A stretch of DNA of 36,464 nt from Armatimonadota bacterium (GTDB lineage Bacteria > Armatimonadota > Armatimonadia > Armatimonadales > Armatimonadaceae). Every line of letters starts with the position of its first letter. Position 1 is the first letter of the stretch. Made by a program: the position numbers. This document shows, piece by piece, positions 18,001 through 24,000 of the stretch. Where the stretch lies: assembly GCA_043754515.1 (NCBI GenBank), contig JAYUUO010000153.1, forward strand, positions 1 through 36,464, in the 5' to 3' direction.

Positions 18001-21000
18001 AAGATAAAGGGCGGGGGGAGGCCCACGATATCCGGGGGCATGGACGACAAGGTACTTCACCACGCGAACCGTATCAACTCGGGTCGGGGAGTCGAGGACC
18101 GCGAGCGGTGGGAATGCCATCGCCTTATTCGCTACACTAAGGCTGACGACCACGGACGACCCAGCCGTCTCAATCCCCATTTTGCAGTCGCACCCCGCCC
18201 CGCGCATCATGTCCGAACTCACCGGGGGCGTGGAACGCGCGGAGGGAAACACCACGGCGCATTGCGAGTCACAACGGGCGACGTTTTCGGCCTTGCAACA
18301 GCAACTTCCCATCACCAAGCCGCAGACGCGGCCTTCGCAGTACCAGGCGAACATGTTCCCCGCGATCATCCGCGGCAAGAGCAGCAAAATCGCCATAATC
18401 AGAGGATGGATATATAATCGCCGGGTGTTCAACACGCCGAGTATACCATGAGCCCGTGGTCCATTCGTAATACCGTACTAGCGACTGAGCGCACGTTCGT
18501 ACCTCTCGCCGGTCGCGGCCCGCAGCTGCGCGCGGGCGATCACCCGCTCCGCCTGAGCGCGGGCGAGCGCGGTGATCGCACGGGTGTAGGCCGCTAGCGC
18601 GTCGAGCCGTTCCGCCGTGACCGACTTGCCCGCGTCGTAGCGGAGGCTTGCGAGTTCATACGCCTGCTTCGCGGCGGCAACACCAACCTGCGCGACGCCA
18701 ATCCGCGCGTTCGCGGAGGCGTTCGCGAGCCACGCGGACGCCGCCTCCCGCGCGACACTTTGCCGCGCCCGATCCCCGTCGGCGGTGGCGCGGTCCAGCC
18801 TTGCCCGCGCCGCTTCGTTATCCGCACGCCGCTGCCCCCCGTCGAGGAGCGGCAGACTTGCGGTCAGGGCGAGGGTGTAGCCCGCGCGGCTTCCGCCGTC
18901 CCGACTTGCGGTGCCGTCCGCCATCGCCACGCCGTACACCTGCGGCGCATAGGCTCCTCTGGCGGCGGCGACCCCGGCCCGCGCGGCCGACACCTGACGC
19001 AGAGCGGTGACCAGTTCCGGACGGTTCGCCGCCGCCCGTTCCACCGCCGCTTCTTGGGTGGCGGGGATGCTACCGCCGTCCGCTATCGCTATCAGAGCGT
19101 CCAGCGTGTCGCCCGGCACGAAGGGCGATGACTGCGGAACGCCCATCGCCGCTTTGAGTTCGACCAGTGCGACCGCCGCGGCGTTCCGCGCCTCCAACAC
19201 CGCCTGTTCCGCCTCCGCCTGTTCCGCCTCCTCGCGCGACAGATCCACCGGCGCGAGCCGTCCCGCCGCGACGCGTAGCCGGGTGACGCGCACCTGTTCG
19301 TCCTCGGCGCGGAGCCGCGCCTCCGCCGCATTAATCAGTTCCCGCCCTAGCACCGCGCGGGTGTATGTTTCGGTGACGGACTCTTCGGCAAGTAGTCGCG
19401 CCGCCGTGACCGCCGCGCCCATCGCCTCGCTCTGCCGGTTCGCGCTCCCGAGATTCGCTTCGAGCCGCCCGCCCGTCGTCAGAGGCACCATCAGCATCAG
19501 GTTCTGATCCGCGAATGGGCGCGGCGAGACGGCGAAAACGTTCTGCGGCATGACGCCCGGCGCGGACGTCAAAATGTTGGACGAGTCACCTGTCGCCAGG
19601 TACGTCGTGGTCGAAAGGGTCGGGCGGCGGGCCGCTACCGCCGAACCGACGCCCGCGTTCGCCGCGCGGTAGTCGGCTTCCGCCGCGCGGATAGCAGGGC
19701 TGTCGTGTAGCGCGAGCCGCACCGCGTCCGTCAGCGACAATGTTTGTGTCACGGGCGGGGCGGGATCGGGCGGGCCTGCGGGCGACGCGGCGGAAACGCC
19801 CGCCGCGCGTGCCGAACCGATTGGCCCCGCGACGAACGCGGCGAGCAGAAGGCAAATGACTACGGCGGCTTCCGACCCCCGACCGGATGAGCCGTGCGCA
19901 TCGTTTTCGCCGGGTGCGTTCTTGCCCCGCGCCCGCCTGAACAGGTTATTCAGGTCGTCAACTAGGGCGTGCATGACGGGAATCACCAGGAGTGAGAGTA
20001 GCGTGCCAATGGTCAGCCCCGCGACGATCACCGTGCCGAGCGGCTGGTACGCGTCAATGCCCATACGCGGCGCGAGCGCAACGGGGAGCATGGTCACGAT
20101 GGTGATCAGCGAGGTCATTACGATGGGCCGGAGGCGGTCGCGACAGGCCAGCGCGATTGCCTCGTCGCGCGGCAACTGCCCTTCCGCCCGCCGCCGCTGT
20201 ATCTGATCAATTAGCAGAATAGCGGTGGTGATGTCCATCCCGGTCAGCACGATCACCGCCATGATGGACACAGTCGAGAATGCCTGATGCGCGAGCCACA
20301 GCCCTAAAAAAACGCCCGACAGTTCGAGCGGGATTGAGAGCACCATCTGGAGCGGCGCGAGTAGCCCCCCGAACTGCGCGATCAACACCAAGAAGATCAG
20401 CAACACGGCTAGTTCCAGCCCGCGCAAGAGGCGGGCGAAGCTGTCCATCATCTGCGTCATGTCACCGCGCATCTCCAGAGAATAGCCGGGCGGGAAGTTG
20501 ATCTCCGCCGACGCTCTCGTGATGATGGACATAGCGAGGTCCATTGAGGGCGGACCATCTTTCCGATAGTATGCCAGCACCGAGATAGTTCTGCGCAACC
20601 CGTCGTGCTCGATAATGGTCGGTGCTAGCTCGGGCGTCGCCGTCGCCAGCGTCTTGAGCGGGATCTGTTCACCGCTCGGGGCGGTGATTGGCATCTGGAG
20701 CAGATCGTAAATGCTCTGCCGTTGCCCTTCCTGATACCGGATGTTGATAGTGTCCTGCCGGATGTTCGGGAGCCGATAAAACTCGCTGGCGAGCGCGCCG
20801 CCCATGGCGTAGTAGGCTTGATCGGCGATTTCGGACGGCGTGAGGCCGACCTCGGCGGCGCGGCGGCTGTCTACATCAAGGCGGTACGACGGCTTCTCGG
20901 TCGCCCAGGAGGTCGAGACCTGTAGTGCGCCGGGCGTTTTTCGCGCGACATCCGCGACCTGCGCGGCGAGTTTCGACAGGATATTCAGATCCTTCCCCGT

Positions 21001-24000
21001 GACCAGGATCGTGACGGGTGCCTCGGACGACGCCATGACGTCCGACCCCATCTCCTTGATCTGGAGGCGGCGGATGTTCGGGATCGAGCGCATTGCCTCG
21101 TCCTGAACCGCGTCAATTACTTGCCACACGGTCTGCTTCCGCTCGTCCTTGTCCGACAACGTGATCATCAGGGTGGCCGTATTTACCTCGCCCATCGCGT
21201 AGCCGGTGAAGTACGTCCCGCCCGGTTCCTCGCCGATTTCGGTAGAAACGCGGCGAATTTCGGGGTGCTTCAGGATGATCCGCTCCAGTGCCGTGGTCGC
21301 AGCCTTCGTTTCGGCATAGCTCGCGCCGGGGCGCATCTCCAGCACACCGTACGCCTGCCCGACGTCGGCGAGTGGCATCATCTCCGAGCCGATGAACCGG
21401 TAGAAACCAAGCCCGGCGATCACCGTGGCGAGAGCGACGGCGACGACCGAGAAACGATTACGGAGGAGCACCAGCACCAGCCGCTGATACCAGGCGTCAG
21501 CCCGATCCAGGCGCGACTGGAGCGGCGCGAGCACTCCCCGCGCGAACCAGGAGCGGCGTGTCTCATCGCCCGCCGTATGCGGCTTGAGCAGGTACGCCGA
21601 AAGGAGCGCGGTCAGTGTCAGCGAAACGAAAAACGAGGCGATCAGCCCGAAAATGATCGGATAGACCAACCCGACGAACATGATCTGCGTAATGCCGCCG
21701 CAGAACAGGAGCGGCGACAGCGCGAGTACCAGCATGATCGTGGACGCGGCGACGGCGAGCCGCACTTCGGTGATTCCGTCCACGGTCGCGGTCTTCGGGT
21801 CCTTGCCCATCGCCAGGTGCCGCTCGACGGCGTGGATGTCAATCAGGGAATCGTCCACGAGCCGCCCGATGGAGACGAGAAGCCCGATCAGCGTGGACGA
21901 GTTCAGCGAGAACCCGAACGGCACCATGAGCAGAATCGCCATCGCCATGGATACCGGGATCGTCACCAGCGAGATCAGCGTGCCGCGCCCGCTCCCGAGG
22001 AAGAAGAGCACGGCGATCCCGCAGAGTGCGACCGCCGTTAGTAGCTCCTCGCCGGTGTTTTTGAACAGGATGTTGACGAATCGCGCGTTGTCATAGGCGA
22101 CTTTGAAGTGTAATCCGGGATGATCCTCCTCCAGCGTCGCGATCTGCTTTCGGACTGACGCGATCACGGGCACGGAACCGACGGCGGGGTTCTGGATCAC
22201 TGCCATCTCGACGGCACCGTTATCCGCGCCCTCGATTTGTTTGCGCGCCCCGTCCACGAAGTGGTAACCGCTCCGCTGTTCGCGGAAGTCATCGGAAACG
22301 CTGGCCACATCCTTGATCGAAATGATAGCCCCGTTCTTCGCGCCGAGCGGATAGTTCGCGACCGACTGCGCATCCTGGGCAAGCCCCGAAACGCGCACGA
22401 TAGTCTCGTTCAATCCGCTCGTGATCACGCCGGCTGGTTTCGCCGCGCTGTGTTTGTCCACCGCGTCGCGGACGTCCAGTATCGAGTAGCCGTAGGCGGC
22501 CAATTTGTCGCGATTCACCGTGACGCGCAGCTGCCGCTTCCGCCCACCGTAGACCGAAACGGACTGAACGTCTCCGATCTGTTTAAGGGCGCGGACGCCC
22601 TCGTTCTCGGCGAACTCGCGGAGCGAAAGCGGCGTCCACCCTTTATCCGCGTCACCCGTCACCGACAGCGAAAGTACCGGCAGGTTCAGCGGGTCAATCG
22701 GTAGCACCCAGGACGGCTTCCCGTTCGCGCCGGTCGGTGGCAGGTCGGCCTGCACCGCACTCATCAGCGATTGGACGTCCGTGGTCGCCTTCTTCATATC
22801 CGTGCCGTAAGGAAACTCCAGCGACACTATAGACAGACCGTCCTGCGAGGTGGAGCGGATGTACCGCGCCCCGCGAATGTCTGTCATCCGCTCCTCGATA
22901 GGCTTGGAAAGGTACGTCTCCATCTCCTGAGCGGATAGTCCGGGCATCATGGTTACGATGCCGACCAGAGGCGACTCGACGTAAGGCATCATGCGTCGCG
23001 GCATGATCCCGCCGAATACCGTGATCGCCGCCAGCACGATCACGGCGACATAGAACGAGATGACGACCCACGGGTGCTGTATGCTCCACGCCGAGACGTT
23101 GAACCCGCCGGACGCGGTTTCACTTTTAAGTTTAGACATCGCGGCTACCGTCCTTCCTGAACCGGCGTGAGTTTTCCGCCGTCCATGGGATCAATGAAGT
23201 GGTGCTTCCGCGCGTCCGCTTCGGAGTAGATCATGTTACAGGTCGCGCAACGGTAGCGGGTGATGCCGCGAGCGGTACCGCCCGCCGCAGTCGGGAGCGT
23301 CTCCGGCCCGCTATCGCCCCAGCGCGTTAGGGCGACCCGTCCTCCTTCGGTTAGCCCCGCCTGGCCGCGTATCACTATCCGGTCGCCCGCGCCGAGCGCG
23401 AGCGTGGATATCACGGACGCGGAGCCATCGCTCGCGCCGAGGGTGACCGCGACGCGCCGTATGGTCAGACCGCTATCGCCGACAGATGCTGTGCCCTCTC
23501 CATCGGATGCCGCGCCCGCCCGCGCGACGGGCGCGAGTTTTCCGCCGTCCATGGGGTCAATGAAGTGGTGCTTCCGCGCGTCCGCCGCCGAATAAATCAT
23601 GTGGCAGACGGCGCATTCGTACCGCGTCGCGTCCGTCCCGGTGCTCTTGCCTGTGACGGACGGACGGACCGACCCGCTCGCGACCCACACGAAGGCGTTC
23701 CCGCCGTCATAAACCACCGCCGCCGTCGGGACGAGCAGCGCGTCGCGCGAGCCTGGTTTCGTCAGATGTACGGTGACGAACGCGCCGGGGAGCAGAGCGT
23801 GACGCGGGTTGTCCAGTACTGTCTCGACCACCGCCGTGCGGCTCGTTTCGTTCGCAGCGGGAAAGACGGATGTGACTGTGCCGACAATTGACTTCGCCGC
23901 GCCGTTCACGCCCGCCTGGGGGACGATTCGCACGGGTGTCCCCGGACGGATGCCGCTCAGGTCGCTGACGGCCACCCGCGCCTGAACCCGAACCCGGTCA

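Follow-up and report, generated by a model that had tools for sequence, protein, structure and literature searches.

The window, a 36,464-nt stretch of contig JAYUUO010000153.1 from an Armatimonadota bacterium (assembly GCA_043754515.1), carries on its minus strand an operon in which an RND permease and a TolC-type outer-membrane channel (OMF) are joined in one frame, with both domains complete. The genes and large domains of this operon are as follows.

25504..25974, minus strand: Cys-rich leader ORF of 156 aa, ending in RGPP..RAPP, at the head of the operon
25100..25384, minus strand: ORF of 94 aa, N-terminus hydrophobic, MFP-type CxxC motif in one copy (motif scan)
23145..25022, minus strand: periplasmic adaptor (MFP), above the cut-off of TIGR01730, ending 5 nt before the fusion gene
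18478..23139, minus strand: RND-OMF fusion gene, 1553 aa, predicted mass 165 kDa
19960..23091, minus strand: RND permease domain, aa 17-1060, 12 TM helices (Pfam ACR_tran, 661 bits; hydropathy)
18481..19803, minus strand: predicted mature OMF, aa 1113-1553, 45 kDa, with two OEP repeats and four beta strands

The first-pass annotation had described a single 1553-aa frame, and this description is borne out: the minus-strand ORF at 18478-23139 has no internal stop and is matched by ACR_tran, by OEP in two stretches (Pfam, 142.7 bits), and by the NCBIfam TolC model across aa 1133-1545. The hydropathy scan finds 12 segments in the RND part, and aa 1091-1107 form a further one, the 13th. Residues 1001-1553 were modelled with AlphaFold (pLDDT 81); the model shows a helix spanning 1088-1103 and an OMF fold with four strands, which in structure comparison matches SilC, CusC, TolC, and OprM at E ~1e-19.

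The ACR_tran match, the 12 TM helices, and two large periplasmic loops place the permease in the RND superfamily (AcrB/CusA), and its best solved relative is MdtB (E 3e-84). All NCBIfam subfamilies (HAE-1, MdtB/C, CusA/CzcA) score below cut-off, the best at 544 against 1250 and TIGR00914 at 345 against 701. None of the three methionines of the periplasmic CusA site has an exactly aligned counterpart (M702 is one residue off); ten other periplasmic methionines are conserved at 99-100% in the family. The proton relay of AcrB comprises D407, D408, R971, and T978 (PMC8277102). AcrB also has a lysine in TM10, K940. The relay equivalents D429, D430, R1002, and T1009 are kept in all 141 aligned sequences, and the position of K940 is occupied by threonine (Thr971 here) in every one of the 141. 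In addition, an Arg in TM4 and an Asp in TM10 are invariant in the family. With these two residues and no TM10 lysine, the pump may use a rearranged proton relay, a speculative and rather unlikely reading.

The OMF part belongs to the TolC family by its two OEP repeats, four beta strands per protomer, and long helices; the lipobox with Cys at +1 that marks the OprM/CusC lipoprotein type is absent. AcrAB-TolC, MexAB-OprM, MdtABC-TolC, and CusCBA resemble this system in their 12-helix RND with two periplasmic loops, an adaptor gene directly upstream, and a two-repeat OMF, and the TM4 Asp-Asp pair and the TM11 Arg and Thr of AcrB-type pumps are kept in the window RND. Unlike the canonical tripartite pumps, which have RND, MFP, and OMF as three separate polypeptides, the window encodes RND and OMF in one reading frame, and its channel has no lipobox.

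The adaptor gene probably starts at 25022, where homolog alignments begin, although its longest frame begins at 25244, and its product carries two CxxC..H-F-x-D-P-x-D-G-G repeats. The 94-aa ORF has no Pfam family; similar ORFs precede the MFP at four related loci (L006, L064, L065, L097), and its product is possibly a periplasmic metal-binding partner. The 156-aa leader, which has counterparts at 8 of 10 relative loci, is possibly a metal-sensing arrest peptide. CruR and other DUF2946 members are copper-responsive upstream ORFs, and CruR heads an uptake operon (PMC9426467). The leader at 25504-25974 is like CruR in being a Cys-rich ORF of ~150 aa with a C-terminal RAPP at the head of a metal-handling operon; unlike CruR, it heads an efflux operon, and it matches neither DUF2946 nor any other Pfam family at E<=1, so that membership of the leader ORFs in DUF2946 was rejected. 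Judged from this gene context, the pump substrate is reasonably likely to be a soft metal, for example Cu(I)/Ag(I).

Promoter and terminator scans stay at chance level, the Rfam scan matches only a tRNA, and 203 plasmid records match short pieces, none covering 80%. An integrase (4319-5626) lies beside tRNA-Thr; no connection with the fusion is claimed because it sits on the far side, adjoining the lower-GC left end.

At the junction between the two domains, four features follow one another.

19921..19938, minus strand: basic cytoplasmic patch after TM12, aa 1068-1073, originating from the RND tail and taking the place of the signal-peptide n-region
19870..19920, minus strand: polar spacer of 17 residues, aa 1074-1090, of low model confidence
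19819..19869, minus strand: 13th hydrophobic segment, aa 1091-1107, KD(11) 3.40, a helix in the AlphaFold model
19804..19812, minus strand: predicted signal peptidase I site A1110-R1111-A1112, with the putative cut before A1113 (sequence rule)

Split RNDs carry the same basic tail as the fused junction. Segment 1091-1107 is best read as the h-region of a retained OMF signal peptide, and by its sequence the join is a basic RND tail spliced to an OMF signal peptide minus its start codon. By sequence the junction looks like a signal peptidase I substrate, with Pro at -7 as helix breaker and the small residue Ala at -3 and -1; the Ala at +1 leaves it outside a stricter rule (small-x-Ala followed by D/E/Q). 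The hydrophobic segment and the A-x-A site that had been pointed out earlier both stand, but the basic patch does not adjoin the hydrophobic segment as proposed: the n-region is interrupted by the polar spacer, the longest among all family junctions examined, with three acidic residues within it. The open frame across the junction is weak evidence alone, because a stop-free run of 71 codons has a chance of ~0.23 at this GC; the evidence for the fusion is its conservation, including in the two nearest relatives.

Among the 120 homologs listed, 24 are fused, 23 of them at 1508-1568 aa and one at 973 aa, which reproduces the earlier count. The two nearest relatives, P0002 and P0003 (SH-aLRT 99-100), come from other sources and are also fused. 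That two genes were joined by an error of assembly or sequencing is therefore rejected on fused relatives, trees, and run comparison, and the chance of it is minimal. The assembly does consist of 313 contigs, the locus is absent from three same-genus genomes, and the assembly may itself derive from the sole run in which one contig covers the whole gene (4 of 21 runs were compared, all as contigs, and no RNA data set is listed as carrying the sequence); no contig from an independent study bridges 19851-19977 among the matches listed. However, the sequence near the junction holds neither an OMF start codon nor an RND stop, and in a run of a different study all 30 bins are covered and no indel is listed close to the junction.

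In a sample of the class, the OMF ortholog is present in 28 of 71 genomes, and the 28 ortholog loci comprise 8 fused, 19 split, and 1 undecidable. Fused and split forms coexist within the family at 72-83% identity. A single origin of the fusion is rejected, since AU tests exclude one fused clade on both the RND tree (p-AU 4e-5) and the OMF tree (p-AU 4e-18); the latter test was run without L113, which is cut by a contig end, and without L125. The sisters of the fused locus L120, among which it nests, are split, and the sequence at its junction looks like a join made by deletion. The family has switched repeatedly between fused and split states.

Other RND-OMF fusions occur in Acidobacteria and elsewhere: among 120 matches listed for a second, unrelated fusion, 77 show the same domain order and junction anatomy as the fusion here. 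Their RNDs are only 25-32% identical to the window RND, which points to separate origins. The design thus recurs widely, and its end product is likely an ordinary pump. In a phylum-wide OEP sample (150 of 498 matches), none lies in a frame of >1000 aa. No description of RND-OMF fusions was found in the literature, which included the available portions of PMC8277102, PMC4026382, PMC2891726, PMC5727081, PMC10872679, and 10.64898/2026.02.24.707749; the RND tables in the PMC10872679 supplements may list such proteins.

The two sets of fusions permit the junction to be compared with true signal peptides. Mean junction hydrophobicity (KD11) is 2.82 in fused family members (n=29) vs 2.57 in the signal peptides of split OMFs (n=12), while split-RND tails reach a maximum of 1.56 (n=95); the same control is less clean in the unrelated set, where split tails reach 2.58 (n=43). 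The small-x-Ala motif followed by D/E/Q occurs in 25 of 29 family junctions vs 2.4 in shuffles, and in 64 of 77 unrelated fusions vs 11.7. This strict rule was written after the 29 family junctions had been viewed, and 17 of those rows fall in one clade, so they are not independent; the 77 unrelated fusions were not used to build it. Two of the 29 (P0011, P0012) lack even a looser peptidase motif. All 77 unrelated fusions have a net positive stretch ahead of the h-region. Moreover, in all 12 split orthologs examined (RND identity 72-82%) the OMF start overlaps or closely trails the RND stop and the OMF has a type I signal peptide, which matches the fused junctions in type and hydrophobicity. 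No lipobox is present in the signal regions of either junction set, and the signal peptidase II (lipoprotein) route is rejected on this ground. A single lipobox match, in P0009, sits in the mature part.

The linker from the h-region to OMF helix 1 measures 10-36 residues across the 29 junctions (median 18). PMC8277102 gives the RND head of a pump as 70 A and the barrel as 100 A. Adding half of the barrel to the head puts OMF helix 1 at a distance of at least ~120 A from the inner membrane, which needs ~34 extended residues. An assembled pump from uncut chains is therefore out of reach in 28 of 29 junctions, whose linkers fall below this length, the shortest at 10-12. It is highly improbable that the chain stays uncut and that helix 13 anchors the OMF in the inner membrane as part of a pump of compact or non-canonical build, even though the lineage of P0001-P0003 has the longest linkers (28-36 residues) and the cleavage of the fusion is something that we infer. 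The precursor of the Bradyrhizobium japonicum cytochrome b/c1 protein FbcH, which is reportedly cut at Ala-x-Ala by signal peptidase, is also reported to retain activity when uncut, and this case favours a functional uncut chain. On the other side, the OMF retains its four beta strands, and the peptidase motif stands far above shuffled levels.

A separate OMF could also arise by internal translation from the in-frame Met1057 at the end of TM12, which would give it a normal N-terminal signal peptide and make the fusion partly cosmetic. A strong Shine-Dalgarno-like hexamer, GGTGAT, precedes it by 7 nt and ranks third in strength among the 45 internal ATGs (-9.1 kcal/mol vs -9.3 for the gene's own start), and an equivalent Met occurs in most fused proteins. 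However, both the Met and the hexamer stem from the conserved TM12 stretch L-V-I-P-V-M and occur in split RNDs as well, the Met is missing from two fused proteins (P0007, P0025), and the full-length chain would need cutting even so. A conserved internal start is unsupported, with a strong site in 3 of 9 fused vs 2 of 13 split loci, and this route appears improbable.

The fused OMF might instead be a tolerated passenger, degraded or non-functional, with the RND using another channel. At least eight further frames with OEP domains exist in the genome, among them a separate OMF at 16406-17821, 657 nt downstream of the fusion gene, and the end branch of the window OMF (0.40) is longer than in its fused sisters. 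Such a role has a slim chance, because none of the 23 full-length fused homologs has a shortened or damaged OMF part, and the positions invariant in split orthologs are kept. Furthermore, the downstream OMF, which the first-pass annotation had placed in a czc-like operon, is the first gene of a separate CzcCBA-like operon that has a leader ORF of its own.

The main reading is that a polyprotein is cut by signal peptidase I to give a tripartite pump of the ordinary kind, whose substrates are probably metals, and we put its probability at roughly 0.75. The fusion would have arisen in an MFP-RND-OMF operon when a short deletion took out the stop codon of the RND together with the start codon and n-region of the OMF. 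The RND would insert in the inner membrane with its 12 helices, and its basic cytoplasmic tail would orient the retained h-region as a 13th pass, delivering the OMF part to the periplasm, where signal peptidase I would cut after A1112. A 13th pass from a retained signal peptide with subsequent peptidase release is the best-supported reading of the junction. Two products are predicted: an RND of 120 kDa that has gained one helix, and a TolC-type channel of 45 kDa that is not a lipoprotein and would move to the outer membrane and join the adaptor; we infer this topology, cleavage, and assembly from the sequence. The host has genes for both signal peptidase I (three Peptidase_S26 genes) and Omp85 proteins (two genes), which supports this reading. 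A more speculative and rather unlikely extension is that the fusion serves as an assembly device: the OMF precursor would be held on helix 13 until the RND had inserted or trimerised, and timed cleavage would free three channel subunits in place at a fixed 1:1 ratio. This would explain the repeated joins within one family.

In the textbook view, an efflux pump has three genes whose proteins are each targeted on their own. FbcH is similar in arrangement to the window fusion, since the signal peptide of its second protein comes directly after a polytopic inner-membrane protein; the two products of FbcH, however, both remain at the inner membrane, whereas the second product here must reach the outer membrane. 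If the main reading is true, signal peptidase I can free an outer-membrane protein that is attached to the end of a transporter with 12 helices, and one precursor supplies both membranes. The family is a useful test bed for the costs and benefits of fusion, since near-identical fused and split operons coexist. Channels are also missed in annotation, because the fused genes are named only as RND permeases.

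A single stop-free frame at 18478-23139 on the reverse strand encodes 1553 aa, as the first-pass annotation had claimed, and comprises an RND permease and a TolC-type outer-membrane factor (OMF). In Pfam searches ACR_tran spans aa 17-1060 (661 bits), with two OEP repeats C-terminal to it. The RND part has 12 hydrophobic segments in a Kyte-Doolittle scan, and a 13th lies at aa 1091-1107. An AlphaFold model of aa 1001-1553 (29 sequences, pLDDT 81) contains a helix at 1088-1103, flanked by two low-confidence linkers and followed by a complete OMF with four beta strands, which matches SilC, TolC, CusC, and OprM in Foldseek (E about 1e-19). 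A gap of 5 nt separates the fusion gene from the adaptor gene upstream.

The chance of a stop-free 71-codon junction is about 0.23, and because such an open frame could be fortuitous, the case for a fusion rests on its relatives. Of 8000 candidates scored in a homolog search that used aa 900-1553, 510 were matches; among the 120 listed, 24 have both domains and 96 the RND only, which again yields the 24 fused homologs counted in the first pass. The nearest relative on the RND tree is the fused homolog P0003 (support 100), and on the OMF tree P0003 together with P0002, also fused (support 99). One of the four sequencing runs compared spans the gene with zero differences and may be the source of the assembly. 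In a run from a separate study, every one of the 30 bins is covered and no indel is listed close to the junction, although none of its listed pieces bridges 19851-19977. The RND-OMF fusion at this locus is real and very unlikely to be an artefact. Literature searches, which did not extend to subscription journals or to resources like TCDB, turned up no account of RND-OMF fusions. In Bacteroidota annotations, long proteins of CzcA type that end in an OEP domain are common, and FbcH is reportedly a precedent for internal cleavage of a membrane polyprotein.

The junction had been read as a retained signal peptide, with a basic patch directly before a hydrophobic segment. The segment stands, but 17 polar residues, including three acidic ones, set it apart from the patch (aa 1068-1073); no other of the 29 family junctions examined has a spacer this long. 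These 29 fused junctions were set against the signal peptides of 12 split OMFs, excluding the homolog P0014, which duplicates the P0013 junction, and the locus L067, whose leader is aberrantly long. Mean peak hydrophobicity is 2.82 in the fused junctions versus 2.57 in the signal peptides, and the tails of 95 split RNDs reach at most 1.56. Small-x-Ala followed by D/E/Q occurs in 25/29 fused junctions (shuffled mean 2.4, maximum 9 in 2000), a rule set after viewing the junctions, 17 of which belong to one clade. By a looser rule, a site is present in 27/29 fused junctions and 12/12 split signal peptides. The predicted site in the window, A1110-R1111-A1112 followed by Ala, agrees with the textbook -3/-1 rule for signal peptidase and fails the strict motif. 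Predicted cleavage products are 120 and 45 kDa.

An independent RND-OMF fusion of another RND subfamily (26% RND identity) lies at 5694-10325 of L094, in a genome of the window's family (G010), and its junction has the same anatomy. A search seeded with it provided an out-of-sample check of the junction rule. Among the 120 matches listed, 77 are fused, with RNDs 25-32% identical to that of the window. These fusions, which are also related to one another, have a strong h-region (hydrophobic core) in 75/77, a net positive stretch ahead of it in 77/77, and the strict motif in 64/77 (shuffled 11.7, maximum 23 in 1000). A lipobox was found in none of the 77. The highest case in the split-tail control of this set is 2.58.

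Separate production of the OMF from an internal start at Met1057 is unlikely: a good Shine-Dalgarno-like site is present in the window's gene, but it is not conserved (3/9 fused and 2/13 split loci), and two fused proteins lack the equivalent Met. Possibly the fused OMF is a mere passenger, as other OMFs are present in the same genome; against this, every full-length fused homolog retains an intact OMF domain. Cutting of the chain is favored by geometry. PMC8277102 places the RND head 70 Å into the periplasm and describes a 100 Å OMF barrel with helix 1 at its middle. Because of this head height and helix position, a chain linking helix 1 to the inner membrane would have to span at least about 120 Å, estimated at about 34 fully extended residues. 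Linkers in the 29 junctions measure 10-36 residues (median 18; 30 in the window), and only one reaches 34. By these figures cleavage would be needed, and an uncut chain working as a pump, being at odds with the linker geometry, is highly improbable. The host genome encodes three Peptidase_S26 and two Omp85 proteins.

Seven of 73 loci from GTDB genomes are fused, and wherever the RND end is present, loci whose RND is 52-62% identical (Melainabacteria, Chthonomonadaceae, and others) are split. An OMF ortholog occurs in 28/71 genomes of the window's class; 8 of these loci are fused, 19 are split, and a contig end truncates the remaining one. At most of the loci examined in close split relatives, the start of the OMF either overlaps the RND stop or lies no more than about 25 nt beyond it. 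In the split ortholog L075 (G031), both parts share one frame, separated solely by a TAG at 2857-2859, and the OMF's own Met lies ten codons past it; this locus may be one step short of fusion or a readthrough candidate.

The RND tree, with 62 rows (21 of them fused) hand-chosen from 141, shows seven changes of state, at least four on strongly supported branches; the trees are quick LG+G4 ones whose counts cannot separate gain from loss. A single fused clade was rejected by AU test on the RND (p 4e-5; 14 vs 21 rows) and on the OMF (p 4e-18; 29 vs 18 rows, loci L113 and L125 omitted). Repeated fusion is the simpler reading because the outgroups are split. The fused locus L120 nests among split sisters, and its junction looks like the basic RND tail of those sisters running straight into their OMF h-region, likely illustrating the fusion step. 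The split RND P0125 (1111 aa) shares a 90% cluster with the fused P0007; its N-terminus is as in P0007 and its C-terminal tail resembles that of the split P0075, which may reflect recombination or chimeric assembly. What the family contributes is the coexistence of fused and split forms at 72-83% identity, with several independent state changes. A distant ortholog (35-40%) is present in 2/31 other genomes of the window's family, and an ortholog in 0/3 others of its genus and 25/39 of the sister family. This patchiness, counted in incomplete genomes, suggests that the locus may have been transferred into the window's lineage.

Judged from sequence, metal efflux would be the likeliest function of the fused pump. 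The surrounding features are as follows:

9648-10388, ZIP transporter, after the ArsR gene and the CzcCBA-like operon
11050-11424, ArsR regulator, following that operon
11625-17821, reverse strand, separate CzcCBA-like operon downstream of the fusion gene (OMF, periplasmic adaptor MFP, and CzcA above the TIGR00914 cut-off)
17947-18435, reverse strand, Cys-rich ORF of 162 aa ending RGPP..RAPP, heading a metal-efflux operon
23145-25384, reverse strand, CxxC..H-F-x-D-P-x-D-G-G motif, twice in the adaptor C-terminal part and once in an upstream 94-aa ORF
25504-25974, reverse strand, Cys-rich ORF of 156 aa with the same ending, heading a metal-efflux operon

The motif region has no Pfam family above cut-off, and the two Cys-rich leaders have no Pfam match. 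A Cys-rich RAPP leader stands at the operon head in 8/10 relative loci. The two in the window resemble CruR-type arrest-peptide leaders, CruR heading copper operons (PMC9426467). The RND falls below every NCBIfam subfamily cut-off. Like AcrB, it has the aspartates in TM4 and both Arg and Thr in TM11, whereas K940, the TM10 lysine, is replaced by Thr in its subfamily. Two further residues, an Arg in TM4 and an Asp in TM10, are invariant in the subfamily (140-141/141; window 21850-21867 and 20224-20241, reverse strand), whose proton relay is possibly rearranged. Ten periplasmic methionines are conserved at 99-100%, but those of CusA do not align exactly.

Elsewhere in the window, a tyrosine integrase (4319-5626, forward strand) lies beside tRNA-Thr(CGT) (5829-5901, reverse strand), and GC to its left is lower (52-56%); an integrated element is suggested. 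A 1212-aa protein at 25885-29523 (forward strand) combines GH18, polysaccharide deacetylase, and GT2 domains.
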